From Alphaproteobacteria bacterium (lineage in GTDB: Bacteria > Pseudomonadota > Alphaproteobacteria > SHVZ01), in contig JBGALV010000001.1 of assembly GCA_044223515.1 (NCBI GenBank), forward strand, positions 74,864 through 138,863: a stretch of DNA of 64,000 nucleotides, in the 5' to 3' direction. Below, in pieces: positions 8,906 to 57,462 of this stretch. The position numbers and the translations under genes were made by a program. The number at the start of each line of letters is the position of its first letter. The stretch's first letter is position 1. The notes beneath the pieces were generated by a model. That model saw nothing but the letters and a program-made list of their open reading frames with translations, was not told where the DNA came from and ran no database searches.

Positions 8906-8913
8906 GCATCGGC

Positions 8914-8943
8914 CCCCCTCTCCCTGCGCAGCAGGGGGAGGGG
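8914..8943. terminator. GC-rich hairpin between convergent genes (putative bidirectional terminator)
   Basis: The arms cccctctccctgc and gcagggggagggg are a near-perfect inverted repeat. The hairpin lies between the kinase stop at 8905 and the fadD stop at 8962. There is no clear U-tract. Confidence 0.3.
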
Positions 8944-8961
8944 ATCCGAGGAGTGCGCAGC

Positions 8962-10714: not shown

Positions 10715-10778
10715 TCTGCCTCCCGTTTTCGTTCTTCCCATCCTGCGGGGGAGGGCGACCGAGGGCAATGGGGAAGCG

Positions 10779-12724: not shown

Positions 12725-12740
12725 CAGCGCGACCTCGCCG

Positions 12741-13562: not shown

Positions 13563-13596
13563 GATGATGCCGTCGCGCTTCATCGGCCCTCGCGCT

Positions 13597-14541: not shown

Positions 14542-14620
14542 GCTTGGAAAGGCGTTTATAGCGAAAGCCCCCTCCGGGAGGGAGGGGGCTCTCTTCTAGG
14601 TCAAGCCTGCGGCCAGAGGG

Positions 14621-16147
14621 TCAGTCGACCCAGCGGAGCGAGGCGAGGTCGGTGACCGACACCGGCGAGCTCTTCCAGAAGCCGCGGAGCTTGGCGGCGT
14701 AGACGCCGGTGCGCGGCAGCTGGAACATGAAGGCATGGACCGCCTCTTCGGAGATCTTTCGCTGGATCTGCTGGTAGAGGTCCTTCTGCTTGTCGGTGTT
14801 GCTCTCGACCAGGACCGCCTTCATCAGCTTGTCCATCTCGTCGTTCTGGTAGCCGTAGTAGTAGTCCTTGCCGCGCGTGTAGTTGTCCTGATCCCAGGGC
14901 GACACGTGCGCGACCACGGTCATGTCGTAGTTCTTCTGCTTGTAGACGATGTCGAGCCACTGGGCCCATTCCATCGGCTCGATCTTCACGCGGATGCCGG
15001 CTTCCATGAGCTGGGCCGCGACGATTTCCGCGGAACGGCGTGCGTAGGCGAAGGGCGGCGGCTTGATGTTGATGTCGATGCCGTTCGGGTAGCCGGCCTC
15101 CTTCAGCAGCTCCTTCGCCTTGGCGATGTCGTGCGGGTAGCGGTTGGTGAGGTCGACGTACCACGGGTGATGCGGCGGGAAGTGGCTGCCGATCGGGATG
15201 CCGTAGCCCGAGGTCGCACCGTCGATGATCGCCTTCCGCTCGATCGCGTGGTTGACCGCGCGGCGCACGCGGATGTCGTCGAAAGGCTTCTTGTTGTTGT
15301 TCAGGATCAGGGGAACTTCGCCCTCGGTCGAGCCGATGATCACCTGGAAGCGGCTGTCGGACTTGAAGCGGTCGAGGGTCTCGGTCGCGCCGATGGTCGG
15401 GAAGGCATCGATGTCCCCGGCCAGGAGCGCCGGCACCTGGGCCGCCGCGTCGGGCACGAACTTGAAGGTCGCCTGCCTGATCTGGGCCTTCGCCTGATCG
15501 CGATAGGTCGGCGACTTCTCAAGGACGACGCGGTCGCCCTTGACCCACTGCTTGAACTTGTAAGGACCTGACCCGACCGGGTTGGTCTTGTTGTTGTCGG
15601 CGGACTTCGGATCGAAGATCGCCGCACCGCCCGAGGCCATGAAGGAGAGGAACAGGCTGTTCGGCTCCTTCAGCTTCAGGACGACCGTCGTCGCGTCCGG
15701 CGTCTCGACGCCGGCGATGTTGGCGTAGTGGCGCTTGATCGGGTTGGTCGAGGTGGGCAGCGCGTTGCGGTCGAAGTTCCACTTGACCGTCTCCGACGTC
15801 AGCTTCTCGCCGTTGTCGAAGACAATGCCCGGTGCCAGCTTGAAGGTGTAGGTCTTGCCGTCCTCGGCGACGGTCCACGAGGTCGCGAGCGAGGGCTGGA
15901 CGGTCCCGTCCTCGCCGATGCGCGTCAGGCTCTCGTAGACGTTGACGCTGAAGATCACGTCGATCGCGGCAGCGGCGTTTTGCGTCGGATCGAGCACAGG
16001 CGGCTCGTCCTGCATTCCGATGACGATCGTGTCCTTGGCGGCGAGCGCGGCGGAGGCGCTCATCAGCAGTGCGACGGCGAGGGACGTCGAAAGAATACGC
16101 ATCGTCGTGCTCCCAGAAATCGAGGGGGCGAAACCGTGCCGAAGCAA
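14621..16147 (-). CDS. ABC transporter substrate-binding protein, family 5 (peptide/nickel)
   Basis: A signal peptide, then an SBP_bac_5-like sequence of 508 aa. Confidence 0.85.
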   Translation of the reverse strand: MLRHGFAPSISGSTTMRILSTSLAVALLMSASAALAAKDTIVIGMQDEPPVLDPTQNAAAAIDVIFSVNVYESLTRIGEDGTVQPSLATSWTVAEDGKTYTFKLAPGIVFDNGEKLTSETVKWNFDRNALPTSTNPIKRHYANIAGVETPDATTVVLKLKEPNSLFLSFMASGGAAIFDPKSADNNKTNPVGSGPYKFKQWVKGDRVVLEKSPTYRDQAKAQIRQATFKFVPDAAAQVPALLAGDIDAFPTIGATETLDRFKSDSRFQVIIGSTEGEVPLILNNNKKPFDDIRVRRAVNHAIERKAIIDGATSGYGIPIGSHFPPHHPWYVDLTNRYPHDIAKAKELLKEAGYPNGIDINIKPPPFAYARRSAEIVAAQLMEAGIRVKIEPMEWAQWLDIVYKQKNYDMTVVAHVSPWDQDNYTRGKDYYYGYQNDEMDKLMKAVLVESNTDKQKDLYQQIQRKISEEAVHAFMFQLPRTGVYAAKLRGFWKSSPVSVTDLASLRWVD

Positions 16148-40918: not shown

Positions 40919-42076
40919 CTAGATCGGCCCGGTGTAGTGCGCGCGCGGGCGGATCAGCCGCCCGGTCGCCTGCTGCTCGAGCGCGTGGGCGAGCCAGCCG
41001 ACGGTGCGGCCCAGCGTGAAGATCAGCATCGGTGCCGCCTCTGGCAGCTTCAGCACGCGGGAGAGCGCGGCCAGGCCGAAGTCGATGTTGGGCGGCGTGC
41101 CGGTCTGGGTCGCGACCGCGTCCGCGATCTCGCGCATCCGCCGTTGCGTCGCATCGCGCGGGAAGGCCTTGGCGAGGGCGTCGAGCAGGAAGCGTCCGCG
41201 CGGGTCGCCGTCTGGATAGAGCGGATGTCCGAAGGCGGGGAAACGGTCGCCGCGCCGGGCTCGCGCGCTGACGGCGCGCGGGATGTCCCTGATCTCGTCG
41301 AACTCCCGGAGCCAGGCGGCGGCGCGCCGGGAGGCACCGCCATGACGCGGCCCCTGCAGCGCCGCCAGGCCGGCGGCGACCGCGTCATACAACGACGCGC
41401 CGGTCGAGGCGACGCAGCGCGCGACGAAGGAGGACGGATTGAGCTCGTGGTCGGCGCACAGCACCAGCGCCGAGCGGACGAGACCGGCCCGCTTAGCGTC
41501 GAGCTTCCATCCCTCGGCGAGTACCGTGTGGGCCGAGCGGGCGCGCGGCGGCTTGCCGACCAGCGATGCCGCGACCAGGCGCAGCACGCGGCCGGCGGCG
41601 GCAGCGCGCGCCGCGGGTTCCTGGGCGATCGCTTCGACGTCGGCGGCGCCGGCGATCGGCAGTATCGCCTGCAGCCGTATGGAGGCGTCGCCTGACGTCT
41701 TCGGCGGGGCGATGGTCGAGGGGAGGTTGCGGGGGGCGAAGGCGACCTCGTCACGCGTCTGCCAGAGCAGGCAGGCGACCTCCTCCAGCGTCGCCGTCGC
41801 GGCGAGATCGAGCGCGTCCTTGCCGCGATAGGCGTAGCGGCCGTCGGCGATCCGGGTGAGCGCGGAGTCGAGGACCGGAGCGCCGAAATCGAGCGCGCCT
41901 TCGGCACCCTCGCGGCGCGAGATCAGTCGGTCGATGTCCTCGGTCCGATAGCGTCGGCTGCGGCCCGGGCCGGGCTCCGATTTCAGCATTCCGCGGCTGA
42001 CATAGACATAGAGCGAGGCCGGCTTGATGCCGAGGCGGGATGCCGCTTCGGCGGCGGTGAGGTGGCGAGACGGCAT
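40919..42076 (-). CDS. citrate synthase-family protein with N-terminal helix-turn-helix domain
   Basis: The N-terminus (LTAAEAASRLGIKPASLYVYVSRGML) is an excisionase/MerR-type HTH. The rest resembles the citrate synthase small/large domain (HGGA...). Confidence 0.7.
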   Translation of the reverse strand: MPSRHLTAAEAASRLGIKPASLYVYVSRGMLKSEPGPGRSRRYRTEDIDRLISRREGAEGALDFGAPVLDSALTRIADGRYAYRGKDALDLAATATLEEVACLLWQTRDEVAFAPRNLPSTIAPPKTSGDASIRLQAILPIAGAADVEAIAQEPAARAAAAGRVLRLVAASLVGKPPRARSAHTVLAEGWKLDAKRAGLVRSALVLCADHELNPSSFVARCVASTGASLYDAVAAGLAALQGPRHGGASRRAAAWLREFDEIRDIPRAVSARARRGDRFPAFGHPLYPDGDPRGRFLLDALAKAFPRDATQRRMREIADAVATQTGTPPNIDFGLAALSRVLKLPEAAPMLIFTLGRTVGWLAHALEQQATGRLIRPRAHYTGPI

Positions 42077-42163
42077 CCCATGAACTTAACAACTTAATCA
42101 ACATTGACAATGATCGTTAGGGCAGGGACGCTGACTTGGTTCATTCTTCATGAGGAGGCTGTC

Positions 42164-43249
42164 ATGGCAGGCGCATCCGGGCTCGACGGCATCGTCGCGG
42201 CGGACACGGTCTTGAGCGACGTCGACGGGGAGGCGGGGCGCCTGGTGATCCGCGGCGTGCCGGTCGAGGTGCTGGCGGCGCGCGAGGGCTTCGAGGGTGC
42301 GGCCGCGCGCCTGTGGGACGGCTTCGTCGCCGATAGGCTCGATCGGGCGAAGGTGCTCGACGTGCTCGGCCGAGCCCGTGTCGCCGCCTTCGCCCATGTC
42401 GGCAAGGCGGTCGCTGCCGGTACCGGGCTGGAGCCGGTTCCTGCGCTCCGCGCGGGGCTCGCGACCCTGCCCGCCCTGAAGGACTTTCATCCGGCCTATG
42501 CCTTCACGTCGGCGGCGCCGGTGATCCTCGCGGCGCTGCTGCGCCAGCGCGACGGTCTCGCGGCGATCGCGCCGGATCCGTCGCTGACCACGGCGCAGGA
42601 CCTGCTTCGCATGCTGCGCGGCAAGCCGGCGGCACTGGCCGAGGCGGCGGCGCTCGACGCCTACCTCACCACCGTCAGCGATCACGGCTTCAATGCCTCG
42701 ACCTTCACCGCGCGCGTCGTGGCATCGACCCAGGTCGGCGTCGGTCCCTCGGCGGTCGCGGCGCTGGCCGCGCTCGAAGGGCCGCTGCATGGCGGCGCGC
42801 CGGGACCCGTGCTCGACATGCTGGACGGCATCGGCGGCCGGGAGAACATCAAGCCGTGGCTGGAGTCGCGGCTGACATCGGGCGAGCGCCTTATGGGCTT
42901 CGGCCACCGGGTCTACAAGGTCCGCGATCCGCGTGCCGACGTGCTGAAGGGCGCGGTCCGCACGCTCTCGCGCGACGCGGGCCGGCTCGCCTTCGCCGAG
43001 CAGGTGGAGGCAGATGCGATCGCGATCCTGGCGCGGGTGAAGCCCGGCCGCCGGCTCGACACCAATGTCGAGTTCTATACGGCGCTGCTGCTGGAGGCGC
43101 TCGAGATCCCGCGCGCCGCCTTCACCGCGATCTTCGCGGTCGGCCGCATGGCCGGATGGACCGCGCATGCGCTCGAGCAGGCCCGCGACGGCCGGCTGAT
43201 CCGGCCCTTGTCCCGCTACGTCGGACCTTTGCCCAAGGAAGCCGCCTGA
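42164..43249 (+). CDS. citrate synthase-like / citryl-CoA lyase family protein
   Basis: It starts MAGASGLDG at 42164, preceded by GAGGAGG. It has citrate-synthase family motifs (GPLHGGA, GFGHRVYK). Confidence 0.75.
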   Translation: MAGASGLDGIVAADTVLSDVDGEAGRLVIRGVPVEVLAAREGFEGAAARLWDGFVADRLDRAKVLDVLGRARVAAFAHVGKAVAAGTGLEPVPALRAGLATLPALKDFHPAYAFTSAAPVILAALLRQRDGLAAIAPDPSLTTAQDLLRMLRGKPAALAEAAALDAYLTTVSDHGFNASTFTARVVASTQVGVGPSAVAALAALEGPLHGGAPGPVLDMLDGIGGRENIKPWLESRLTSGERLMGFGHRVYKVRDPRADVLKGAVRTLSRDAGRLAFAEQVEADAIAILARVKPGRRLDTNVEFYTALLLEALEIPRAAFTAIFAVGRMAGWTAHALEQARDGRLIRPLSRYVGPLPKEAA

Positions 43250-46679: not shown

Positions 46680-46960
46680 GCTAGCTTCCCCGCCGATGGT
46701 TCCCTTCGGGGATTCAATGGGAACGCGGTGAGGCTTCGGCCGACTCCGCGGCTGCCCCCGCAACTGTAAGCGGCGAGCCTTGCGCCCTCGTGCCACTGGG
46801 AAACCCGGGAAGGCGGCGCAAGGCTAGGACCCGCGAGCCAGGAGACCTGCCATCGCCGTGGTCATGCGCGAGAACATCGGGCGGGGTGCCCTGATGGAGA
46901 CCGGAGCCCTCTGAAGTTGGGCGCCAGCCTCGGTTCGCGGTGACGGATCACGTTCGCCGC
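46680..46960 (+). ncRNA. cobalamin (B12) riboswitch with expression platform, upstream of the TonB-dependent receptor
   Basis: It has the conserved core GGTGAG...CCGCGGCTGCCCCCGCAACTGTAAGCGG...GTGCCACTGGGAA...GGGAAGGCG, which includes the B12 box GCCACTG. Confidence 0.8.
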
Positions 46961-46973
46961 GAGGTCTCGTTCC

Positions 46974-48872
46974 GTGCATTCCCTCATCAAGCAGTCGGCC
47001 CTCGGGGCCGCGTTCGCTCTCGGCGTCGCCGTGCCGGCGTTCGCCGATCCTCTCGTCATCACCGTCACGCCGAACCGGCGCGAGGTGCCGATCGATCAGG
47101 TCGGCAGCACCGTCACGGTCGTGACGTCCGAGGACATCGAACTCAGGCAGCAGCGCACCGTGCCCGACGTGCTGCGCACGATCCCCGGCATCAGCGTGAT
47201 CCAGAACGGCGGCCCCGGCGGCTCGACCACGGTCTCGCTCCGCGGCACCAACACCAACCACGCGAAGGTCCTGATCGACGGCATCGACGTCGGCGATCCC
47301 TCGACCGCCAACGGTGCCTTCGACTTCGGCAACCTGCTGACGTCGGACGTCGAGCGGATCGAGGTCGTGCGGGGACCGCAATCCGGCCTCTACGGCTCGG
47401 ACGCGATCGGCGGTGTCATCAACATCGTGACGAAGAGAGGAAAGGGACCCGCACGGGCGACCGCGGCGATCGAGGGCGGGTCCTTCGAGACCCTGAACAT
47501 GGCGGCCGGGTTGAGCGGCGCCACCGGCCGCTTCACCTATGCGTTCGACGCGGCTCATCTCCATGCGGGCGACACCCCGGTGACGCCGCTCTCGCTGCTG
47601 CCGGCGGGACGCGCGCGGATCGGCGACAAGGCCGACAACCTGACGCTCTCGACCCGGCTCGGTGCGAAGCTCAGCGACGATTTCGATCTCGGCTTCGTCG
47701 CGCGCTACGTCGATGCGTCGCTCCGCTTCACCGGCGACGACTTCTCCACCTTCCCGGCGACGCCCGCGGCCGCGCAGAGCCGGTCGCTGAACACGATGTC
47801 GCTGACGCGGCTGGAAGCCACGCATCGCAGCTTCGAAGGCTTCGAGCAGCGTTTAGGAATCTCCTATACGGAGCACGACCGCGAGATCCGCGGCATCGAT
47901 GCCTTCACGCCGGACACGGCGTACACGGGCGATCGGACCAAGGTCGACTGGCTGGGAACGTACCAGCTCGTGCCTGGGCACAGCCTGATCGGTGGTCTGG
48001 AAGCCGCGACCGACAAGCTCGACGATCGCTCGACCCGGGCCGAGAACGACACGAGCGCCGGCTTCGTCCAGCTGGACTCGGTCTTCGGCGGCGCGCTCTA
48101 CAACAGCGTCAGCCTGCGTCACGACGACAACGACCGCTTCGGTGGCGTCACCACCTGGCGGATCGCACCCAGCTATCGCATCGAGGCGACCGACACGCGG
48201 CTCAAGGCGAGCTACGGCACCGGCTTCAAGGCGCCGAGCCTGTCGCAGTTGTTCGTCAGCTACCCGGCCTTCAACTTCTTCGCCAACCCCAACCTGAAGC
48301 CCGAGCGCAGCACCGGCTACGACGCCGGCTTCGAGCAGGCGGTGATGAAGGGGCGGCTCCGCTTCGGGGCCACCTACTTCCACAACGACATCGACGACCT
48401 GATCACCACCAACCCCGGCTTCACCTCGCTGGAGAACCGGCCGTCGGCGACCACCTTCGGCATCGAGTCCTTCGTCTCGTTCGCGGTGACGCCACACCTG
48501 ACGCTCCGAGGCGACCACACCTATACCGAGGCACGCGACAACGAGACCGGGAACGCGTTGCTTCGCCGCCCGAAGCACAAGGCGACTCTCTCGGCGACCT
48601 GGCAGGTGACCGAGGACTCGACGCTGAGCCTGAGCACCCTCTATGTCGGCGCGCGCGTGGACGGCAACCGGGACTTCTCGGTCCAGCGGCTGACCGCGCC
48701 GTCCTACACCGTGATCAATCTCGCCGGCACGCACGAGCTGAACCAGCGGACGACGCTGTTCGGTCGCGTCGAGAACCTGACGGACAAGCAATACCAGGAC
48801 CCGACCGGCTTCGAGCGGCCGGGCCTCGGCGTGTTCGTCGGCGTGAAGGTGAGGTACGACGCCGCGCCCTGA
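46974..48872 (+). CDS. btuB: TonB-dependent outer-membrane receptor (BtuB-like)
   Basis: A GTG start, a signal peptide, a TonB box (DPLVITVT), a plug and a 22-strand barrel ending in the aromatic C-terminus. It is preceded by a B12 riboswitch. Confidence 0.85.
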   Translation: MHSLIKQSALGAAFALGVAVPAFADPLVITVTPNRREVPIDQVGSTVTVVTSEDIELRQQRTVPDVLRTIPGISVIQNGGPGGSTTVSLRGTNTNHAKVLIDGIDVGDPSTANGAFDFGNLLTSDVERIEVVRGPQSGLYGSDAIGGVINIVTKRGKGPARATAAIEGGSFETLNMAAGLSGATGRFTYAFDAAHLHAGDTPVTPLSLLPAGRARIGDKADNLTLSTRLGAKLSDDFDLGFVARYVDASLRFTGDDFSTFPATPAAAQSRSLNTMSLTRLEATHRSFEGFEQRLGISYTEHDREIRGIDAFTPDTAYTGDRTKVDWLGTYQLVPGHSLIGGLEAATDKLDDRSTRAENDTSAGFVQLDSVFGGALYNSVSLRHDDNDRFGGVTTWRIAPSYRIEATDTRLKASYGTGFKAPSLSQLFVSYPAFNFFANPNLKPERSTGYDAGFEQAVMKGRLRFGATYFHNDIDDLITTNPGFTSLENRPSATTFGIESFVSFAVTPHLTLRGDHTYTEARDNETGNALLRRPKHKATLSATWQVTEDSTLSLSTLYVGARVDGNRDFSVQRLTAPSYTVINLAGTHELNQRTTLFGRVENLTDKQYQDPTGFERPGLGVFVGVKVRYDAAP

Positions 48873-48891
48873 GGGCGCGTCGCCCTAACGT

Positions 48892-49515
48892 CTACTCGCG
48901 CGAGGTGTGCTGGACCGACCCGATCAGCGAGAGGAACTCGCGGCGGGTCGAGGGATCGTCGCGGAAGGCGCCGGTCATCTTGCTGGTGACCATCGAGGTG
49001 CCCGGCTTGTGGACGCCGCGGGTGGTCATGCAGTGGTGGATCGCCTCGATCACGACGGCGACACCGCGCGGCTTCAGGGCACTCTCGATCGCGCCGGCGA
49101 TCTGCGCGGTCAGCTTCTCCTGGATCTGCAGGCGCTTCGCATACGCGTCGACGACGCGGGCGAGCTTGGAGATGCCGACGACGCGGTTGCGCGGCAGGTA
49201 GGCCACGTGCACCTTGCCGATGATCGGTGCCAAGTGGTGCTCGCAATGGCTCTCGAGACGAATGTCGCGGAGCACGACCATCTCGTCGTAGCCCTCGGTC
49301 TCGGAGAAGGTGCGCGACAGGATCTCTTCCGGGTCGGCGCCATAGCCCGAGCCATAGGCTTCGTAGGCACGACAGACGCGGGCCGGGGTGTCGTGAAGGC
49401 CTTCGCGCGACGGGTCGTCGCCGGTCCAGCGCAGGAGGACGCGGATCGCTTCCTCGGCTTCGGCCCGAGAGGGCTTGAGGCTCTTCTTGGGCGCAGTCTT
49501 CTTGGGTGCAGGCAT
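48892..49515 (-). CDS. folE: GTP cyclohydrolase I (FolE, type IA)
   Basis: It has the CEHH zinc-site motif and the C-terminal HHCMTTRGV motif. The ATG at 49515 has GGGAGGA 9 nt upstream. Confidence 0.85.
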
Positions 49516-49843
49516 CCGACACATTCCTCCCGGGCCGATCCGTTGAGACGGGACCGGCCTGTTTTGTAGCGATCCTGATCGAGAAGGCCGGGACCCGCAT
49601 TCCGGTGCGGTCCGCAGCCTGTAGGTCGCGGCTAAGCCCGAGCCTAGCCGATCGGATACCTACGAGGCGATGGCGAAGGTTGCAACCCGAAAACCCGGCC
49701 CTGCGTGGGTTGAAAGGTAAAAATCCCGTACATTCAATACGGTTAACGTGGTTGTGAGAAGCCGCCGCCGGCCAGGAATGCCCGGTGCGATCACTTCGGA
49801 ACCGGAACGTCGTTACTTTGGCCGAGCCCGGACACTTGATCCC

Positions 49844-50974
49844 TTACTTCTTCGAGACGGCAAAGGGATCGGCGAAGCGTGGATCCTTGATGAAATCCTC
49901 ATCGGTGAGCGTGCGGAGAAAGGCGATCAGGTCGGTGCGCTCGTCCGAGGTGACCTTGAAGCCCGCGACGAACAGGTCCTTGTTCGGGTGCTGCGAGCCC
50001 GCGCCGGCATAGGGGCCGGAGGCGATCGTCCGGCCGCCGGCGGCGTAGTGGTCGATGACCTCCTCCAGCGTCGCGATGCTGCCGTCGTGCATGTAGGGGG
50101 CGGTGAGGGCCACGTTGCGGAGCGTCGGCGCCCGGAACAGGCCGACATGCTCGGGCCGGCCGGTGACCTCGGCGACTCCGGCGTTGAACGGCGGATAGTT
50201 GCCCGTGCCGCCGATATTGTAGAGGCCGGTGTTGTGGAAGGCGATCTCGAGGAACTGCGTCCGCTCGTGGACCACGTTGTCGTTGAGGTTGAGGCTGCCA
50301 TGGCAGTGGTGGCACTCGAACCGCTCGGAGAAGAAGAGCGCTTCGCCGCGCTTTGCCGAGTCCGAGATCGCGTTCTGCTCGCGGCCGAAGCGATAGCGGT
50401 CGTATGGAGAGTTCGCCGAGATCAGCGTGCGCTCGAAGGTGGCGATCGCCATCGCGATCTTCGGAATCGTGACGTCGCCGCTTGCGTCCTCGGGGAAGGC
50501 GGCCCGCGTCAGCTCGCGGTAGGGCGGATCGGCATTGAGCAGGCCGAGCACGGCCTGCTCGCGGCCAGTGAGCCCCATCTCGACCGGCTGCTCGTTGAAC
50601 ATCGGCACCAACGCCTGGTTCTCCAGCATCTTCAGCAGCGGGTTTGCCCAGGTCAGCACCGGGTTGTAGGCGACGTTGGCCAGCGACATCGCGCTCCGCG
50701 GATGAACCTCGCCGGTGACACCGACCGAGCGTGCCTTGCCGTCGGTGAAGGCGAGGTCCTGTCGATGGCAAGAGGCGCAGGAAAAGGTGCCATCGAGCGA
50801 GAGCCGCTTCTCGTAGAAGAGATGGCGGCCGAGCTCGACCTTGGCCGTCGACATCGCGTTGCCCTCGGGCACCGCCGGCTTCGGCAGCCAGTCGGGAATG
50901 CGCCAGACATACTCCTCGGCACGGGTGCCGCCGATGCCCAGCAGCAGTATCGCGATGACGACGAGCCGGATCAT
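49844..50974 (-). CDS. mbnH: di-haem cytochrome c peroxidase family protein (MbnH/MauG-like)
   Basis: It starts MIRLVVIAILLLG at 50974. It has two haem motifs, CASCH and CHHCH. There is an ATGA overlap with the upstream partner gene. Confidence 0.8.
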   Translation of the reverse strand: MIRLVVIAILLLGIGGTRAEEYVWRIPDWLPKPAVPEGNAMSTAKVELGRHLFYEKRLSLDGTFSCASCHRQDLAFTDGKARSVGVTGEVHPRSAMSLANVAYNPVLTWANPLLKMLENQALVPMFNEQPVEMGLTGREQAVLGLLNADPPYRELTRAAFPEDASGDVTIPKIAMAIATFERTLISANSPYDRYRFGREQNAISDSAKRGEALFFSERFECHHCHGSLNLNDNVVHERTQFLEIAFHNTGLYNIGGTGNYPPFNAGVAEVTGRPEHVGLFRAPTLRNVALTAPYMHDGSIATLEEVIDHYAAGGRTIASGPYAGAGSQHPNKDLFVAGFKVTSDERTDLIAFLRTLTDEDFIKDPRFADPFAVSKK

Positions 50975-51840
50975 CGGTCGAGGCGGAAGAGGCTCTGCGT
51001 GCCGGACGGCAGTCCGAAGGCCGCCATCACCCCGGTGCAGTCCTTGTCGTCGGGTGCGGAGAGGCAGCCGAGCGCGGTGTCCGGCTGGTTGACCGTAACG
51101 TCGGTCTGCGCCAGCAGCGCGGCGATGTCGGCGACGATCACGTCCTTGCCCGGATCGAAGGCGGCGAAGGTCACGGTGGGACGGTTCGGGTTGTCGCATT
51201 TGGCCGGGCGCTGCGTCGCCGCGCCGACCGCACGGCCGTGGCCGGCATGTCCGCCCATCGCCATGCCGCCGGCCGGCTGACAGGCGGTCGATCCGAGATG
51301 CACGACGAAGCCGGGTCCCTTGGCGACGGCCATGTCGAGGCGGAGGAACTTGTAGCCGCCGAGCCAGCTCCAGAAGAGGCCGCTCAGGTTCAGCGGCGAG
51401 TAGGCCAGCAGCGCGTCCTCGTGGTTGAGGCCGAACGGCACGCCGAGCGTGAAGCGGAGGCCGACGTAGTCTCCGGCCGGCACGGTTCCGCCCACCGCCA
51501 GGTTGGTCTCGGTCGTGCCGTTGAGGCAGGGGCCCGACTTGTCCTCGAAGTCGAGCAGGGCCACGTCGCGGTGCTGCCACTTCCGGTCCTGGGTGAGATC
51601 GACCGGAACCGCCTTGCCGGCCCGGTCGACCAGCTGGACCTCGGAGACGTAGAAGCGGAAATCCTGGGGCGTAATCCGCGCCTTGGCGGTGCCGATGCCG
51701 TCGTAGCTCCTGCCGCAGGCGAAGGGCTCGTTTCCGACCATCGCCTTGAAGCGCAGCGTCACCGGCCTGGTCTGCGCCGCCGCCGCCGAAACCATCGTGG
51801 CCAGGACCAGCCCGGCCAGCACTGTCACCTTGCCCTGCAT
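50971..51840 (-). CDS. mbnP: MbnP-family periplasmic protein (metallo-mystery pair partner of MbnH)
   Basis: A signal peptide and a Cys- and Trp-containing periplasmic protein of 289 aa. It lies immediately upstream of a MauG-like di-haem enzyme and is translationally coupled to it, which is the hallmark arrangement of MbnP/MbnH. Confidence 0.6.
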   Translation of the reverse strand: MQGKVTVLAGLVLATMVSAAAAQTRPVTLRFKAMVGNEPFACGRSYDGIGTAKARITPQDFRFYVSEVQLVDRAGKAVPVDLTQDRKWQHRDVALLDFEDKSGPCLNGTTETNLAVGGTVPAGDYVGLRFTLGVPFGLNHEDALLAYSPLNLSGLFWSWLGGYKFLRLDMAVAKGPGFVVHLGSTACQPAGGMAMGGHAGHGRAVGAATQRPAKCDNPNRPTVTFAAFDPGKDVIVADIAALLAQTDVTVNQPDTALGCLSAPDDKDCTGVMAAFGLPSGTQSLFRLDR

Positions 51841-51973
51841 GACCCCTCCTGCGAGCGGGAAGATAACGTCGCCGGGGCTCCGGATCGACGGTCTTTCGGC
51901 TGCAGCGCGAACGGCTTGATCGGGCTCCCCTATTCGGAAATCCTACGGCCTTCCTTTTCATCCAGGATCCTCC

Positions 51974-52726
51974 ATGAACCAGATCGATCTGAAAGGCCGC
52001 GTCGCGGCGATCACCGGCGGCGCTCGCGGCATCGGCTATGCCATTGCCGAGCGCTTCCTGGCCTCCGGTGCCTCGGTGGCGCTTTGGGACGTCGATCCGA
52101 AGGCGATGGAAGAGGCGAAGGCCCAGCTGTCGAAGAAGGGCAAGGTCGACACCCAGAAGGTCGACGTGGTCGACCTCGCCTCGATCGAGGCGGCGGTGAA
52201 GGGCACCGAGGCCGCCCTGGGGCCGCTCGCGATCCTGGTCAACAACGCCGGCATCACCGGCGGCAACGGCAAGACCTGGGAGCTCGACCCCAAGGTCTGG
52301 AAGCAGGTCGTCGACGTGAACCTGATCGGTCCCTTTCTCTGCGCCCGCGGCGTCGTGCCGGGCATGCTGGCCCGCAAGTACGGCCGCATCGTCAACATCG
52401 CCTCGGTCGCCGGCAAGGAGGGCAATCCGAACGCCTCACACTATTCGGCCTCCAAGGCCGGCCTGATCGCGCTGACCAAGTCGCTCGGCAAGGAGCTGGC
52501 GCAGAACGGCGTGCTGGTGAACTGCGTGACGCCGGCCGCCGCCAAGACCGACATCTTCAAGCAGATGAAGCAGGAGCACATCGACTACATGCTCTCGCGC
52601 ATCCCGATGGGCCGCTTTGTCGAGGTCGACGAGATCGCGGCGATGGTCGCCTGGCTGGCCTCCGAGGACTGCTCGTTCACCACCGGCGCGGTCTTCGACA
52701 TCACCGGCGGCCGTTCGACCTACTGA
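51974..52726 (+). CDS. SDR-family oxidoreductase
   Basis: The TGGARGIG cofactor motif and the YSASK catalytic motif. Length 250 aa. Confidence 0.85.
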   Translation: MNQIDLKGRVAAITGGARGIGYAIAERFLASGASVALWDVDPKAMEEAKAQLSKKGKVDTQKVDVVDLASIEAAVKGTEAALGPLAILVNNAGITGGNGKTWELDPKVWKQVVDVNLIGPFLCARGVVPGMLARKYGRIVNIASVAGKEGNPNASHYSASKAGLIALTKSLGKELAQNGVLVNCVTPAAAKTDIFKQMKQEHIDYMLSRIPMGRFVEVDEIAAMVAWLASEDCSFTTGAVFDITGGRSTY

Positions 52727-53790
52727 TGACTCAACGGTACCGCGCGGACGATCTGGTTCGCTTCGCCGAAAGCCTGCTGGTCAAAGCCGGCGTCGCGGCC
52801 GATCACGCGCGGATCACCGCCGAGGTCCTGATCGAGGGCGATCTCATGGGCCACACGACCCATGGGCTCGCGCTCATGAACCAGAACCTCGGCGAGCTCG
52901 AGGCCGGCCGCTACGCCAAGGCGGGCGAGCCCGGCGTCATCTCCGACCGGCCGGCGGCCGTGGTCTGGGAAGGGGCGCCGGACGGCAAGCGTCTGCTGGG
53001 TCCGGTGATCGTGCGGAAAGGCTTCGCGCTTGCGGCCGAACGGGCAAAGACCTACGGCACCGGCACGGTGGTGGTACGGCGCTCGGGCCACATCGCCTGC
53101 CTCGCCGCGTACTTCCCCGAGGTGACGGCGCAAGGCCTCGTCGGGCTGCTCTACTCCAGCGACCCGACCGTCGCCGCCGTAGCGCCACATGGCGGCACTG
53201 CCGGCCGCTTCACGCCGAACCCGATGTCCGCCGGCTGGCCGACCGCTTCCGGCCCGGTGATCATGGACGTCAGCACGTCGATCACCACCAACGGCTTGAT
53301 CGCGCGCCGCAACGCCGAAGGCGCGAAGATGCCCGGCGCCTGGCTCAAGTCGCCGGAGGGCGAGGCGACCGACGATCCGGGCGTGATGTTCCGGAAGCCG
53401 GCGGGTTCGTTGCTGCCGCTCGGCGGCATGGATGCCGGCCACAAGGGCTACGCGCTGGCGCTGATGGTCGAGGCGCTGACCTCCGGCCTCGGCGGTTATG
53501 GTCGGGCCGATGGGGCCACCGGCTGGGGCGCCTCGCTCTTCATCCAGGTGATCGATCCAGCGGCCTTCGGCGGCGGCGATGCCTTCGCCCGCGAGACCGG
53601 CTGGCTCGCCGACTCCTGCCGGACGGCGCCGGTGAAGGCGGGCGACGCGGCGGTCAAGGTCCCTGGCGACGGCGCGCTCGCGCGCAAGGCCGAGCAGCAG
53701 GCGAAGGGCGTCGCCCTTCATCCATCGATCCTGCCTGGCTTGAAGACATGGTGCGAGAAGCTCGGCGTCGAGGCACCGAAGCCAGTTTAA
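52726..53790 (+). CDS. Ldh_2-family (malate/L-lactate/ureidoglycolate dehydrogenase type 2) oxidoreductase
   Basis: It starts MTQRYRADD at 52726, with a TGATG overlap with the SDR stop. It has the Ldh_2 conserved HGL and GHKGYALA motifs. Confidence 0.75.
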   Translation: MTQRYRADDLVRFAESLLVKAGVAADHARITAEVLIEGDLMGHTTHGLALMNQNLGELEAGRYAKAGEPGVISDRPAAVVWEGAPDGKRLLGPVIVRKGFALAAERAKTYGTGTVVVRRSGHIACLAAYFPEVTAQGLVGLLYSSDPTVAAVAPHGGTAGRFTPNPMSAGWPTASGPVIMDVSTSITTNGLIARRNAEGAKMPGAWLKSPEGEATDDPGVMFRKPAGSLLPLGGMDAGHKGYALALMVEALTSGLGGYGRADGATGWGASLFIQVIDPAAFGGGDAFARETGWLADSCRTAPVKAGDAAVKVPGDGALARKAEQQAKGVALHPSILPGLKTWCEKLGVEAPKPV

Positions 53791-53797
53791 GAGCGGC

Positions 53798-54568
53798 CTA
53801 GCGCTTGGCGCCGCGGACCTGGATCCAGGGATATCCCGCTTCGTCGACGCCGACCCGTGACTCGACGCCGTAGACGCGGCTGAGCAGTTCCTCGTCCAGC
53901 ACAGAGCGCGCGGTGCCGTCGACCCAGGTCATGCCCGGGCACAGCATGACCAGCCGGTCGGCGAAGCGCGCGGCCAGGTTGAGGTCGTGCAGCACGACCA
54001 CGGTGATCATCTTCCGTTCGCGGCAGAGGCGTTGGACGTCCTCCATCAGCAGGTGCTGGTGGCGAAGGTCGAGGGCGCTGACCGGCTCGTCGAGCAGCAT
54101 CACGCGCGGATCGCGCAAGAGTGCCTGGGCGAAGAACACGAGCTGCTTCTGGCCGCCGCTGAGCTCGTCGAGCGAGCGGTGCGAGACTTCGGCGAGGCCG
54201 AACTGGTCGAGCGCGATCGCCGCGCGGCGGAGCTCGTCCTCCGGCACATGCAGGGTGAGACGCTCGAGCGAGCCCAGCAGCACCGTCTCCATCGCCGAGA
54301 GGCCCATGCGGCTGCGGTTGTCCTGCGGCATATAGCCGATCGCCGATTGCCAGGTGCGGAGCGTGCGCGAGGCGAGGCTGGCGCCGTCGAGCAGGATGTC
54401 TCCTGATTTCGGCCGATGCTCGCCGAAGAGCGCGCGCAGCAGCGTCGACTTTCCGGCGCCGTTGGGACCGACCAAAGCGGTCAGCTCGCCCTCGCGGAAG
54501 GCGAGATCGAGGCCGCCGACCACCTCGAGGTCGCCATGCGCCAGCGTGAGGTCGCGGACCTGCAGCAT
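53798..54568 (-). CDS. iron-siderophore/cobalamin-type ABC transporter ATP-binding protein (FecE/BtuD-like)
   Basis: It starts MLQVRDLTLAHGD at 54568. It has Walker A (GPNGAGKST) and the signature LSGGQKQ. There is an ATGA overlap with the permease. Confidence 0.85.
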   Translation of the reverse strand: MLQVRDLTLAHGDLEVVGGLDLAFREGELTALVGPNGAGKSTLLRALFGEHRPKSGDILLDGASLASRTLRTWQSAIGYMPQDNRSRMGLSAMETVLLGSLERLTLHVPEDELRRAAIALDQFGLAEVSHRSLDELSGGQKQLVFFAQALLRDPRVMLLDEPVSALDLRHQHLLMEDVQRLCRERKMITVVVLHDLNLAARFADRLVMLCPGMTWVDGTARSVLDEELLSRVYGVESRVGVDEAGYPWIQVRGAKR

Positions 54569-55614
54569 CAGATGCCGATCCGCCGGCGCGACAGGATCAG
54601 GTGCAGGAAGAACGGCACGCCGACCACGGCCGTCACGATGCCGACCGGCACCAGCACGCCCGGCATCAGGATCTTGGAGATGACCGAGGCCGCGGAGAGG
54701 AGGAGGGCGCCGACCAGGCCGGACATCGGCAGCAGGAAGCGCTGGTCCTCGCCGACGAAGAAGCGCGAGAGATGAGGGGCGACGAGCCCGATGAAGCCGA
54801 TGGTGCCGACGAAGCTGATCGCGGTCGCGGTCATGAAAGAGATCAGCGCGATCGTCACGAACCGCAACCACATCACGTTGACGCCGAGCGCGCGGGCGCG
54901 CTGCTCGCCGAGGCGAAGGGCCGTCATCTTCCAGGATTCCCGCATCAGCAGCGGAATCCCGATCAGGCAGGCGACGGCGGTGATCTGGACGCTGGTCCAG
55001 GTCGCCTTGGCGAGGCTGCCGAACAGCCAGAAGACGATCTGCTGGCCGACCTCGGGCGTGGCGCGGAACTGCAGAAGCGACTGCAGCGAATGGAACATGA
55101 AGAGGAGCGCGATCCCGGCCAGCACCATGGTGTCGGTGCCCATGCCGCGGATGTTGCCGACGCCGTAGATCGTCGCCGAGGCGAGGCAGGCGAAGACGAA
55201 GGCGCAGACCGGCACGATGAAGCTGGGATTGAGCCCCCAGCCGCCGTTCTGGATGCAGAGCGACGCGCCGAAGCCGGCGGCGGCGGCGAGGCCGAGCGTG
55301 TAGGGACTCGCGAGCGGGTTGTCGAGCAGCGTCTGCATGGTGGCGCCGCTGGTGCCGAGCGCCACGCCGACGGTCAACGCCATCAGCGCCATCGGCAGGC
55401 GCAGGTCCCAGACGATCGCGCGGAGCATGGTGTCGGCCTCGGCCGGGCCGAGCAGCGTCGCGATCACGTCCTCGACGCGGATCAGCGCCGGGCCGGTCGC
55501 GATGTCGAGCACCAGCAGGCCGCCCAGGACGACGGCCAGGCTGAAGAACGCGACCATGCGCCGGCGCTCGACGCGCCGGTGCATGGCGATCGCATGTTGG
55601 ACGGCGTGGTTCAA
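54568..55614 (-). CDS. FecCD-family ABC transporter permease (BtuC-like)
   Basis: A 348-aa polytopic protein of the FecCD/BtuC family. There is an ATGA overlap with the SBP gene. Confidence 0.85.
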   Translation of the reverse strand: MNHAVQHAIAMHRRVERRRMVAFFSLAVVLGGLLVLDIATGPALIRVEDVIATLLGPAEADTMLRAIVWDLRLPMALMALTVGVALGTSGATMQTLLDNPLASPYTLGLAAAAGFGASLCIQNGGWGLNPSFIVPVCAFVFACLASATIYGVGNIRGMGTDTMVLAGIALLFMFHSLQSLLQFRATPEVGQQIVFWLFGSLAKATWTSVQITAVACLIGIPLLMRESWKMTALRLGEQRARALGVNVMWLRFVTIALISFMTATAISFVGTIGFIGLVAPHLSRFFVGEDQRFLLPMSGLVGALLLSAASVISKILMPGVLVPVGIVTAVVGVPFFLHLILSRRRIGI

Positions 55615-56732
55615 ACTTTGCCGCCGGACAGGTTGATCATGAAGGTGCCCTTGGGCTCGATCGGCAGGTACTTCCTGTAGAAGTTCTGATAGGTGGCCTC
55701 GGGATCGAGGTCGGCGAACAGCTCCGGATAGAGGACCTTGGCGACATATTGCAGCGAAGCGTGGTCCGGGATCGTGCGCGAGGCGCCGTGATAGACGGCG
55801 TGCACGCGGTTGGTCTTGACCGCCGGCAGGTCGGCCCAGCCCGGGCGCTTGGTGAAGCCGGCGAGGCGAGAGCGGGCCTCGTCAGGGGTTACGCCTTCGC
55901 CCATGAGCTGCGCGGTCGCGTGCTTCCGCCACTCGGATCCGGCGATCAGGATCACCTCGGGCTTGGCGGCGAGAACCTGCTCGGGCGAGACCGGCGCCCA
56001 GGTCTTCACCACCTCGCGGGTGATGTTGGCGCCGCCGGCGGTCAGCGCGATTGCGCCCCACATGTGATCGCCGTAGCTGACGCCCTGCTCGGCCGGGCCC
56101 TTGTTGCCGAGCTCGATGTAGATGCGCGGCTGCGGCTTGCCGGACCTGGCGACGCGTTCGCGGATCAGGGTGACCGTGTCCTGGTATTCCTTGTTGATCG
56201 CAGCGGCGCGGTCCTCGGTTCCGAGCACCTGCCCCAGTACCTTCGTGCTGGCGAGGTGCTTCTCCAGCGTCTGGGCGTGGTAGTCGACGACGATCACGGG
56301 AATGCCGAGCGAGACGAGGCGGTTGAAGTCGGCGCCGATGCCCTTCACCTGCCAGTCGCCGAGGATCACGAGGTCGGGCTTGAGCGCGATCACCTTCTCG
56401 ACCGAGAAGGTGTTGACCTCGACCTCGCCGACGTCGACCAGCTGGTCGAGCGACGGACGCTTCGCCAGATGCACTTCCCAGTTCTGCGGGCGCCAGTCCT
56501 TCCAGGCGGCTTTGGAGATGCCGACGACGCGATCCATCGCTTGGCTCCCGCCGACGGCGAGGAAATCCTCGAAGTAGAAGCCGAGCATGATGCGCTTGAC
56601 CGGCATCTCGACGGTGACCTCGCGGCCAAGTACGTCGGTGACCTTGAGCGGTGCGGCGGCGGCGGGGAGGGCGAGTGCGGCGAAGGCCGCGAATGCGGCC
56701 AGGAAGGTTCGGCGATGAAGGGAACGAAACAT
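55611..56732 (-). CDS. periplasmic substrate-binding protein, FecB/BtuF class (Tat signal)
   Basis: It starts MFRSLHRRTFLAAFAAFAALA at 56732 with a twin-Arg signal and a GAGGA RBS. It has the Peripla_BP_2-like fold. It is preceded by a B12 riboswitch. Confidence 0.85.
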   Translation of the reverse strand: MFRSLHRRTFLAAFAAFAALALPAAAAPLKVTDVLGREVTVEMPVKRIMLGFYFEDFLAVGGSQAMDRVVGISKAAWKDWRPQNWEVHLAKRPSLDQLVDVGEVEVNTFSVEKVIALKPDLVILGDWQVKGIGADFNRLVSLGIPVIVVDYHAQTLEKHLASTKVLGQVLGTEDRAAAINKEYQDTVTLIRERVARSGKPQPRIYIELGNKGPAEQGVSYGDHMWGAIALTAGGANITREVVKTWAPVSPEQVLAAKPEVILIAGSEWRKHATAQLMGEGVTPDEARSRLAGFTKRPGWADLPAVKTNRVHAVYHGASRTIPDHASLQYVAKVLYPELFADLDPEATYQNFYRKYLPIEPKGTFMINLSGGKV

Positions 56733-56769
56733 GGAATCCTCGCGGTGCGTTGTGGTCGTCACCGCGAAC

Positions 56770-57030
56770 GAGCTTGCCGGGTCGTCGTGACAACCGGCTC
56801 GCTACCGTCAGGGCACCCCGCCCGTCGGCTTCGCTAAGTGACCACGTCGGACGGCAGGTTTCCTGGCTCGCGGCTCTCTGCCTTGCCGTCGCCTTCCCGG
56901 GCCGAGGAAGCCCAGTGGCACGATGACGGAAGACTCGCCGCTCACAGTTGCGGGGGCAGCCGCGGATCGAAGCGATGGCTCCTACCGCGTTCCCTTTTGA
57001 TCCCCTTTCAGGGAACCGTCCGGACCGGAT
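56770..57030 (-). ncRNA. cobalamin (B12) riboswitch (second copy, minus strand) upstream of the BtuF-like SBP gene
   Basis: The reverse complement contains ...GGGAACGCGGTAGG...CCGCGGCTGCCCCCGCAACTGTGAGCGG...GTGCCACTGGG...GGGAAGGCG. The platform shares long identical stretches with the riboswitch at 46.7 kb (GGGCGGGGTGCCCTGA, CGGTTCGCGGTGACG). Confidence 0.75.
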
Positions 57031-57054
57031 GCTACGCGCCCGCGCCGGGCCGGG

Positions 57055-57462
57055 TCAATTTGCCTTCTTGGCGGCCTTGAGTGCGATACGGATCCGTTCG
57101 ACCACCATCTGGGTCGAGGCCGGCTTGACGATGTATCCGGCAATCCCGAGACCCTTGAGCTTGTGCACGCTCTCGGGATCGTTGGAGGCGGTCAGCATCA
57201 CGACCGGAATCTGCGCGCTTCCGGTCGGCAGCTCCCTGAGCTTGGCCAGGAACTCGAAGCCGTCCATGTTCGGCATCTTGAGGTCGCAGAGGATGACGTC
57301 GACGAACTCGCGATCGGCGGAAATCAGGTCGATCGCCTCCTTGCCGTCGCGGGCTTGCAGGATCTCCTTGAAGCCGATGCCGTTCAGCATCCGCGCCATC
57401 ATCGAGCGGATGAAAAGCTGATCCTCGATCAGCAGGATCCTGATGCTGGCGAACTCGCTCAT
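57055..57462 (-). CDS. single-domain response regulator (CheY-like receiver)
   Basis: It starts MSEFASIRILLIEDQ at 57462. It has the phospho-acceptor Asp in VILCDLKMPNMDG and the conserved Lys in YIVKP. Confidence 0.8.
   Translation of the reverse strand: MSEFASIRILLIEDQLFIRSMMARMLNGIGFKEILQARDGKEAIDLISADREFVDVILCDLKMPNMDGFEFLAKLRELPTGSAQIPVVMLTASNDPESVHKLKGLGIAGYIVKPASTQMVVERIRIALKAAKKAN

Follow-up and report, generated by a model that had tools for sequence, protein, structure and literature searches.

Two adjacent genes in a 64,000-nt stretch of DNA (hereafter, the window) most probably form a functional, ordinary MbnP/MbnH pair of an uncultured alphaproteobacterium. Judged by sequence comparison, the genes around the pair appear to be its neighbours by local synteny, not its partners. 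The family to which the products belong has already been named by NCBI. The features discussed below are collected in Table 1.

Table 1. Features of the MbnP/MbnH locus and its surroundings, numbered from the first nucleotide of the window.
Feature	Position	Strand	Description
Cobalamin riboswitch RF00174, before the BtuB-like TonB-dependent receptor	46680-46868	+	124.8 bits
BtuB-like TonB-dependent receptor	46974-48872	+	Best family TIGR01779 (TonB-B12), 314 bits, under its cut-off
folE (GTP cyclohydrolase I)	48892-49524	−	TIGR00063, 219.7 bits vs cut-off of 181.6
Terminator-like hairpin followed by a T-run	49726-49742	−	~100 nt past the mbnH stop; pattern scan
mbnH	49844-50974	−	376 aa, predicted periplasmic di-haem MauG-like enzyme
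ATGA overlap, mbnP stop / mbnH start	50971-50974	−	Read from the sequence; translational coupling
mbnP	50971-51840	−	Intact ORF, 289 aa, predicted secreted MbnP-family copper-binding protein
Met/His-rich loop	51205-51279	−	Residues 188-212, QPAGGMAMGGHAGHGRAVGAATQRP; subclade-specific insertion between Cys187 and Cys215
W157-S158-W159 codons (WxW motif)	51364-51372	−	Alignment to 7L6G
AGGAGG ribosome-binding site	51845-51850	−	4 nt before the mbnP ATG
Peripla_BP_2/FecCD/ABC transporter genes	53798-56762	−	Family matches
Cobalamin riboswitch RF00174, before the transporter operon	56836-57035	−	128.8 bits

Profile searches matched both products to the corresponding NCBIfam models above the curated cut-offs. 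For the mbnP product, the MbnP model TIGR04052 scored 276.8 bits (cut-off of 140, E 1.6e-82) and PF20243 scored 152.5 bits (cut-off of 27); an older name of this family is 'four-Cys motif protein'. The crystallised MbnP (PDB 7L6G) was also recovered as a sequence match (E 2.8e-35). An AF2 model of the protein reached a pLDDT of 87.4, and a Foldseek search of the PDB with this model returned 7L6G chains alone (TM 0.77, E 6e-21), the next match having an E-value of 0.03. Profile and fold agree that the gene upstream of mbnH does not belong to an unrelated family, and the first-pass annotation, which had described its product as a secreted MbnP, was borne out. The N-terminus, MQGKVTVLAGLVLATMVSAAAA-QT, is signal-peptide-like as judged by eye. 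Cysteines 42, 105, 187, 215, 259 and 268 show little or no variation across 122 MbnP sequences and align with cysteines of 7L6G. The dN/dS ratio against relatives ranged from 0.13 to 0.24, with mbnP and mbnH intact in all of them.

The closest characterised counterpart is the MbnP/MbnH pair of M. trichosporium OB3b (7L6G and 6E1C), which shares with the window pair the families, the folds, the P-then-H gene order and the secreted nature, at identities of ~30% for MbnP and ~50% for MbnH. Unlike the OB3b genes, the window pair lies outside a methanobactin operon, with no MbnT, MbnI or MbnR nearby. In gammaproteobacterial methanotrophs, the MopE/CorA and CorB genes present a similar combination of a secreted kynurenine-site copper protein beside a di-haem peroxidase-like gene (PMC3621798, PMC11951088). 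MopE/CorA, however, has a different fold and no sequence similarity to the window MbnP, consistent with the retrieval of 7L6G as the only structural match.

Copper binding by MbnP depends on kynurenine, and in the M. trichosporium protein it is the first Trp of a WxW motif that becomes kynurenine 174 (PMC11951088). Alignment places the W157-S-W159 stretch of the window MbnP on the AWNW segment of 7L6G, with W157 at the position of the kynurenine-forming Trp. Both W157 and W159 were invariant across the 122 aligned MbnP sequences, confirming that the conserved Trp expected of a genuine MbnP is in place. The same alignment revealed His140 and His181 to be invariant, with His at both positions in 7L6G too, so that the motif, the histidines and the six cysteines are all common to the OB3b and window proteins.

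Two features nevertheless set the window MbnP apart from 7L6G: the loss of Met at positions near the site and an extra Met/His-rich loop. M147 and M180 of the 7L6G chain, which lie near WxW and the conserved His, are replaced by Leu155 and Val179 in the window protein, and these positions are without conservation in the window's clade. Given these substitutions, the copper site of the window MbnP may differ from the crystallised one, although the loss of Met ligands is an apparent one, read from the alignment, and may not be real. The inserted loop comprises 24 residues, comes after the His181 strand and carries MxM and HxxH motifs; Met193 and Met195 fall inside it. A loop of 16–31 residues was found in 19 of 120 database homologues, mostly the closest relatives of the window and with the Met/His-rich composition kept, vs ~8 residues in the remainder and in 7L6G. 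The confidence of the AF2 model is lowest at this loop (pLDDT 54–58) and at the WxW segment (pLDDT 61–76). The presence of such a loop beside an invariant His is a minor peculiarity of this alphaproteobacterial subclade.

These features raise the alternative of a diverged MbnP variant with a metal site unlike the crystallised one, in which the loop supplies or replaces ligands. Such a variant might depart from M. trichosporium MbnP in its metal specificity or in its role, with capture or buffering of copper or another soft metal as the options. Loops rich in Met and His commonly bind Cu(I) in other periplasmic copper proteins, and the Leu155 and Val179 substitutions, together with the retention of the MxM and HxxH motifs among the loop-bearing homologues, speak for such divergence. 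Against it, the window protein retains the Trp, the two His and every Cys of the family, as well as its fold. Moreover, the loop appears to go with copper, because the loop-bearing close relatives L021, L022 and L023 are located in classical copper operons. We consider a diverged site unlikely and retain the reading of an ordinary MbnP.

The setting of the pair was compared with that of its relatives. All ORFs scanned from 29.8 to 64 kb of the window fell into other families, with no gene of the DUF692/MbnB type or the MbnC type and no other copper gene, confirming the earlier description of a pair standing outside an mbn operon. A tblastn search of the window with DUF2946, YcnI, CopCD, PCuAC, PepSY_TM, Cu-ATPase and receptor queries taken from the related loci L021–L026 produced a single match, in which the receptor plug region aligned weakly (28% identity) with the BtuB-like receptor. 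Likewise, the 64-kb window contained neither a copper regulator nor an upstream ORF for a DUF2946 protein. With no copper-related gene in the window, the argument for a copper role at this locus is one of homology.

In the loci L021–L029, the closest relatives beyond the window's own clade (47–63% identity for MbnP and 53–71% for MbnH), the genes show the same coupled P-H arrangement, and the Met/His loop recurs in several of them. MbnPH-like genes in copper operons have been described (PMC9426467). In nine of the 10 Pfam-annotated relatives, the operon of mbnPH also contains genes for copper or TonB uptake, counted as at least one of DUF2946, YcnI, PCuAC, CopC/CopD, PepSY_TM and a TonB-dependent receptor with TonB/ExbBD or an ECF sigma/FecR pair. 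The copper-uptake operons of the L021–L029 type combine a DUF2946 (CruR-type) gene, a TonB receptor, PepSY_TM, PCuAC, YcnI and CopCD, whereas the window lacks these partners within 64 kb. A Lacibacterium locus (L020) is similarly bare of copper partners. A stand-alone MbnP/MbnH pair is not unusual: pairs outside methanobactin operons have been described since 2013 (PMC3621798), and our search recovered 3,541 MbnP homologues at E <= 1e-10.

The ATGA overlap between mbnP and mbnH, already pointed out in the first-pass annotation, was confirmed, and gene coordinates give an identical 4-base overlap in L001, L021 and L023; co-directional adjacent pairing of the two genes is found in most related loci. 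Upstream, the block GCAGGAGGG at the mbnP ribosome-binding site is invariant across the window and its near-identical relatives L001–L004, and the 133-bp spacer between mbnP and an SDR gene contains conserved blocks. A promoter scan of positions 48800–52100 returned no sigma-70-like site. Downstream, a gap of 320 bp separates mbnH from folE on the same strand and holds the terminator-like hairpin and a conserved folE leader. The hairpin is weak evidence of termination, because the pattern scan found two sites vs 1.6 expected by chance; its sequence is conserved in L001. When compared with the folE/THF-II riboswitch and other Rfam families, the leader block gave chance-level matches only at E <= 10, and nhmmer and covariance-model searches found it absent upstream of 80 more distant metagenomic folE genes. 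Besides folE and the transporters, the neighbours of mbnPH include the SDR gene and an Ldh2-family gene.

The most conspicuous feature of the neighbourhood is the position of the pair between B12-regulated transporters and near folE. This arrangement, described in the first-pass annotation together with the B12-riboswitch control of the nearest TonB-dependent receptor, is real: two RF00174 matches and the TIGR00063 match support it. The annotation had further raised a connection with corrinoid or pterin (folE) metabolism, in which corrinoid uptake or pterin/folate synthesis would be functionally tied to the pair, for example, through a metal or redox step for B12 import or for FolE. Beyond physical adjacency, two observations lend this idea some substance. 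In L021, whose MbnP is just 57% identical to that of the window, an orthologous ABC transporter under a B12 riboswitch (55–70% identity to the window's) lies ~2 kb from the pair in a different arrangement, suggesting that the adjacency is older than the window's own clade; in L027, a CbiZ gene adjoins mbnH. The ABC transporter beside the pair in L024 was also considered as the same transporter and rejected, given its 33–38% identity to the window's.

The comparative evidence nevertheless weighs against a functional tie. The B12/folE neighbourhood is common only to L001–L004, near-identical relatives whose MbnP identity is 82% or more, and within the fetched flanks a cobalamin riboswitch was found near the pair in just one of 24 other MbnP lineages, namely L021. 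Strand or transcription unit sets the pair apart from the transporters, the SDR gene and the Ldh2-family gene, and each transporter has its own riboswitch. The folE gene adjoins the pair in L001–L004 only, behind the terminator-like hairpin and with its own conserved leader, and in L003 and L004 an additional 170–200 bp lies between mbnH and folE. Finally, the TonB receptors that accompany mbnPH elsewhere are not of the BtuB type, scoring ~30 bits on TIGR01779 vs 314 for the receptor of the window. The proposed link was thus left unsupported; we regard it as very unlikely, and the apparent connection to B12 transport and folE arises from local gene order.

A related possibility combines the two sets of observations. 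An MbnP with a remodelled metal site (Met positions gone and a Met/His loop gained), uncoupled from copper-import partners and found beside a B12-riboswitch ABC transporter in two lineages, might have a client other than copper import, although from the sequences at hand this seems highly improbable. If more than synteny were involved, the pair could serve, for example, in metal handling for corrinoid or cobalt uptake.

The mbnH product scored 506.2 bits on the MbnH model TIGR04039 (cut-off of 362.85, E 3.6e-152). Its two haem motifs, CASCH at residues 66–70 and CHHCH at 221–225, were read in the translation, in agreement with the di-haem MauG-like enzyme named in the first-pass annotation, and its N-terminus is signal-peptide-like. 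The best solved relative is 6E1C (E 1.5e-113, 383 bits), an entry entitled 'MauG-like protein associated with microbial copper homeostasis'. AF2 modelled MbnH with low confidence (pLDDT 63.5), and the model served solely to retrieve PDB entry titles. Across 25 MbnH sequences, 6E1C among them, no variation was seen in the two CxxCH motifs, the inter-haem Trp109 or Tyr310, which the OB3b and window enzymes therefore share.

Tyr310 lies where the window MbnH parts from the classical di-haem cytochrome c peroxidases (2C1U, 1IQC). These enzymes have the same overall fold, two haem motifs and an inter-haem Trp, but they match far more weakly and lack the MbnH-specific C-terminal part: their alignments stop at residues 307–309, short of Tyr310, where the peroxidases have their Met-ligand segment. 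In contrast, the MauG chain aligns through this region, its residues 264–354 corresponding to MbnH residues 280–361. If this stretch is ungapped, MauG Tyr294 would correspond to Tyr310, as suggested by coordinate arithmetic and by conservation with 6E1C. Tyr310 is thus a candidate for the MauG-type distal ligand of a six-coordinate haem, replacing the peroxidase Met. That the di-haem protein is an ordinary cytochrome c peroxidase detoxifying periplasmic H2O2, with an unrelated secreted protein encoded upstream, is scarcely credible: PF03150, which MbnH matches, does span peroxidases as well as MauG-like enzymes, and classical peroxidases were matched at E 1e-27 to 1e-36, but they reached at most 129 bits, the CytoC_perox model scored 30.9 bits against a cut-off of 150, and the ATGA overlap couples translation of the gene to that of a genuine MbnP.

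MauG itself, the enzyme acting on pre-methylamine dehydrogenase, belongs to the same di-haem superfamily and likewise oxidises Trp residues of its partner. The two systems differ in their products, MauG forming the tryptophan tryptophylquinone (TTQ) cofactor and MbnH-type enzymes a kynurenine in a copper protein. The window MbnH scored 166 bits on the MauG equivalog model, under its cut-off of 443.85, and the window is without mau genes.

Taken as an ordinary pair, mbnP and mbnH would have a short promoter region of their own and undergo coupled translation. By analogy with the characterised M. trichosporium proteins, both products would be exported to the periplasm, where MbnH, on reaction with peroxide, would reach a MauG-like bis-Fe(IV) state, with one haem ligated by His and Tyr310 and with Trp109 between the haems. 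It would then oxidise Trp157, the first Trp of the MbnP WxW motif, to kynurenine, and the modified MbnP would bind one Cu(I) at a site including the invariant His181 or His140. The pair would probably act in the acquisition or handling of copper in the periplasm. Its neighbours by synteny (folE, the B12-riboswitch transporters and the SDR and Ldh2-family genes) would have no functional part in this pathway, and the copper-import genes that usually accompany the pair may have been lost in this lineage or kept elsewhere in the genome.

Overall, the locus is a further orphan MbnP/MbnH pair and carries little weight beyond its correct annotation, opening no new question. Its main value is negative, in that the attractive idea of a tie to folE and B12 transport can be put down to local gene order. 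The physiological role of the MbnP/MbnH family in copper homeostasis is only partly understood, and a bare pair such as this one, with a Met/His loop and no copper-import partner, could be a minimal system for MbnP's own function.

Every feature tested places the gene pair examined here in the MbnP and MbnH families. On curated models and by their defining motifs, both proteins are assigned to these families: window MbnP scored 276.8 bits against TIGR04052 "MbnP family copper-binding protein" (cut-off 140, NCBIfam) and 152.5 bits against Pfam PF20243, while window MbnH reached 506.2 bits on TIGR04039 "MbnH family di-heme enzyme" (cut-off 362.85), bearing out the identity proposed in the first-pass annotation. 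The genes are translationally coupled, and the ATGA overlap reported earlier was read between the mbnP stop and the mbnH start. Both are intact in the window and four close relatives. Compared with L001, a member of the window's own clade, dN/dS was 0.13 for each gene; against L003 and L004 of the same clade it was 0.22–0.24 for mbnP and 0.13–0.15 for mbnH. These values therefore indicate purifying selection on mbnP and mbnH.

Features of the MbnP/MbnH locus in the window and of loci encoding MbnP relatives (L numbers; coordinates are those of the locus named)
Locus	Feature	Position	Strand	Remarks
Window	Citrate-synthase-domain gene	40919-42076	-	N-terminal HTH_17 domain, residues 6-55
Window	Citrate-synthase-domain gene	42104-43249	+	divergent from the preceding gene
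Window	Cobalamin riboswitch	46680-46868	+	Rfam, full-length, 124.8 bits; precedes TonB-dependent receptor
Window	TonB-dependent receptor	46974-48872		best family, B12 receptor model
Window	folE	48892-49524	-	passes TIGR00063
Window	~95-nt block	49525-49700	-	core ~49602-49700
Window	Terminator-like hairpin and T-run	49726-49742
Window	mbnH	49844-50974	-	376 aa, hydrophobic leader
Window	ATGA overlap	50971-50974	-	sequence
Window	mbnP	50971-51840	-	intact ORF, 289 aa
Window	mbnP ribosome-binding site, AGGAGG	51845-51850	-	sequence
Window	SDR gene	51974-52726	+	between mbnP and ABC operon
Window	Malate/lactate-dehydrogenase-family gene	52726-53790	+	between mbnP and ABC operon
Window	ABC operon	53798-56762		substrate-binding protein, permease, ATPase; Peripla_BP_2/FecCD type
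Window	Cobalamin riboswitch	56836-57035	-	Rfam, full-length, 128.8 bits; precedes ABC operon
Window	Single-domain response regulator	57055-57444	-
L010	c-di-AMP riboswitch	13159-13291
L011	c-di-AMP riboswitch	12631-12762
L012	c-di-AMP riboswitch	12247-12378
L013	c-di-AMP riboswitch	13428-13559
L020	129-140-aa ORF	7511-7933
L021	129-140-aa ORF	7017-7406
L023	129-140-aa ORF	6894-7307
L021	Cobalamin riboswitch	11988-12167
L021	ABC transporter	12267-15186
L024	~188-193-aa protein	7435-8004
L026	~188-193-aa protein	7423-8004
L027	~188-193-aa protein	5438-6004
L029	~188-193-aa protein	5438-6004
L027	CbiZ gene	8384-9115		opposite strand to mbnH
L027	Stretch without called gene	9116-11790		2.7 kb

The N-terminus of window MbnP, MQGKVTVLAGLVLATMVSAAAA-QT, resembles a Sec signal peptide, in keeping with the secreted, Cys- and Trp-containing protein described earlier. 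Its sole solved sequence relative is 7L6G (E 2.8e-35), entitled "MbnP from Methylosinus trichosporium". An AlphaFold2 model built from 69 homologues (pLDDT 87.4) matched only the six chains of 7L6G (E 6e-21, TM 0.77; next match E 0.03), and window MbnP is predicted with high confidence to have the MbnP fold. In an alignment with 7L6G and 120 database homologues, eleven positions showed no or almost no variation: Cys42, Trp88, Cys105, His140, Trp157, Trp159, His181, Cys187, Cys215, Cys259 and Cys268. The family WxW motif is W157-S-W159, and the expected conserved tryptophan was recovered as W157, which lines up with the leading Trp of the AWNW segment of 7L6G. According to a review, MbnH turns the first WxW tryptophan of MbnP into kynurenine 174, and this residue is needed for copper binding (PMC11951088). 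The 7L6G methionines nearest this motif correspond to Leu155 and Val179 in the window protein. MbnP of the window subclade also carries a 24-residue Met/His-rich insertion, QPAGGMAMGGHAGHGRAVGAATQRP (residues 188–212), between Cys187 and Cys215. Such a loop occurs in 19 of the 120 homologues, including most of the window's closest relatives and the proteins of L020 (Lacibacterium aquatile), L021, L022 and L023, three of them encoded in copper operons. With these differences, the metal site of window MbnP may depart from the crystallised one.

Window MbnH contains the two haem motifs noted at first pass, CASCH (residues 66–70) and CHHCH (residues 221–225). Across 25 MbnH sequences, 6E1C among them, neither these motifs nor Tyr310 or the inter-haem Trp109 vary. 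The best solved relative is 6E1C (E 1.5e-113, 383 bits), entitled [quoted passage not shown]. Classical peroxidases scored at most 129 bits and MauG ~75 bits; the structure model was weak (pLDDT 63.5), its best match still being 6E1C. Window MbnH stayed below the cut-offs of both the MauG equivalog (166 bits; cut-off 443.85) and the peroxidase subfamily model (30.9 bits; cut-off 150). MauG chain positions 264–354 align across residues 280–361 of window MbnH and, if this stretch is ungapped, MauG Tyr294 would correspond to Tyr310. Tyr294, the residue mutated in PDB 3ORV ("Y294H-MauG"), is according to the BthA paper the haem ligand required for the bis-Fe(IV) state (PMC6405878). Classical-peroxidase alignments end at residues 307–309, before Tyr310; together with the MauG-like tyrosine region, no classical-peroxidase signature is therefore present, and the enzyme's description as MauG-like holds. 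Several cyanobacterial di-haem (PF03150) MbnH homologues among our hits (P0135, P0139, P0190, P0204 and P0223) bear the NCBI or UniRef name "methanobactin export MATE transporter MbnM", which looks like a propagated annotation error.

The pair's relatives occur in copper-uptake settings. Pfam-annotated gene calls were available for ten additional neighbourhoods (L020–L029), and in nine of them mbnPH shares an operon with genes of copper uptake or TonB uptake. The accompanying genes are YcnI, a CopC-CopD fusion and a small ORF containing Cys (L022); PCuAC (L021 and L023, the former also adjoining a Cu-ATPase); CopCD (L025); combinations of DUF2946, TonB-dependent receptor, TonB/ExbBD, PepSY_TM and PCuAC (L024, L026, L027 and L029); and, in L028, an ECF sigma factor and FecR together with a TonB receptor that carries a signalling domain, a set resembling the methanotroph MbnI/R/T genes. 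These contexts match published accounts, which place MbnPH-like genes in DUF2946-led copper operons (PMC9426467). Only L020 is as bare as the window, whose pair, unlike these relatives, lies outside a DUF2946/TonB-receptor/PCuAC/CopCD copper operon and likewise outside a methanobactin operon. A tblastn search of the window with copper-partner proteins of the related loci returned nothing, and Pfam scans of the ORFs at 29.8–64 kb contained neither copper genes nor DUF692/MbnB, in agreement with the absence of mbnB noted earlier.

Several small genes and elements accompany the pair elsewhere. In four copper-uptake operons (L024, L026, L027 and L029), a ~188–193-aa protein absent from the window is encoded directly upstream of mbnP and shares 4 bases with the start of that gene; between L024 and L026 the copies are 44–45% identical. 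No Pfam hit is recorded for this protein, the L024 and L027 copies match nothing in NCBIfam, and it looks like an uncharacterised third MbnPH partner. In L020, L021 and L023, all alphaproteobacterial loci, the mbnPH or PCuAC-mbnPH unit opens with an ORF of 129–140 aa (mutual identity 36–48%), at the place taken elsewhere by DUF2946 (CruR-type) genes. Pfam hits are recorded for none of the three, and NCBIfam hits are absent for the L020 and L021 proteins, which have in common a motif resembling AALFG..A.CEPT. Four cyanobacterial loci of Calothrix type (L010–L013) have a c-di-AMP riboswitch on the mbnH strand, 0.2–1.4 kb downstream of that gene.

The first-pass annotation correctly placed B12 riboswitches on both sides of the pair and folE nearby, and suggested a link to corrinoid or pterin metabolism. 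Across 19 genome loci encoding MbnP relatives, the window's neighbours (ABC operon, Ldh2-family, SDR, folE, B12 receptor, FAD oxidoreductase and extensin-like genes) were found only in L001–L004 (MbnP identity 82–94%), and none in L005 (63%) or more distant loci. The only evidence for the link to B12 uptake is the recurrence of B12-transporter adjacency in L021 (MbnP 57% identical), which gene order inherited within one alphaproteobacterial branch explains equally well. In L021 a cobalamin riboswitch precedes an ABC transporter ~2 kb downstream of mbnH that is orthologous to that of the window (55–70% identity). That transporter, however, is on the opposite side of the pair from the window arrangement, separated from mbnH by a chemotaxis-receptor gene on the opposite strand. 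L021, which also has PCuAC and the Cu-ATPase, was the only one of 24 lineages outside the window's clade in which scans found a cobalamin riboswitch, and the receptors accompanying mbnPH in L024 and L026 scored ~30 bits on the B12-receptor model, against 314 bits for the window's receptor. The corrinoid link was accordingly not upheld. A CbiZ (cobinamide amidohydrolase) gene adjoins mbnH in L027, where no cobalamin riboswitch was found. In the window, a response regulator gene ends ~20 bp upstream of the ABC-operon riboswitch on the same strand, an arrangement kept in L001 and L003; farther off lies a divergent gene pair with a citrate-synthase domain in both members, one of them with a DNA-binding domain, an unusual architecture for a citrate synthase.

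The pterin link fared no better. The folE gene lies 320 bp downstream of mbnH, beyond a terminator-like hairpin that is weak evidence, as scan sites were near chance expectation. A ~95-nt block is nearly invariant in the window and L001–L004 within a diverged spacer, and L003 and L004 carry an extra 170–200 bp between mbnH and this block; folE therefore looks independently controlled. The RNAalifold consensus of the block is a long hairpin, with a second hairpin abutting the folE ribosome-binding site; five close sequences are too few to judge covariation. No Rfam family matched, the folE/THF-II riboswitch included (PMC6800512), and nhmmer and covariance-model searches of the regions preceding 80 more distant folE genes found no copy of the block, which is a candidate clade-restricted folE leader element or small RNA.

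Overall, the locus is already known in kind. Pairs that stand alone have appeared in publications since 2013 (PMC3621798), NCBI annotation models name both proteins, with homologues already called "MbnP family copper-binding protein" and "MbnH family di-heme enzyme", and NCBI contains a 100%-identical copy of the window MbnH sequence. The Met/His loop and the bare gene context are minor variations on a known family. By analogy with the characterised M. trichosporium proteins, MbnP and MbnH would be exported, MbnH would form a bis-Fe(IV) species with peroxide and oxidise Trp157 of MbnP to kynurenine, and MbnP would then take up one Cu(I).
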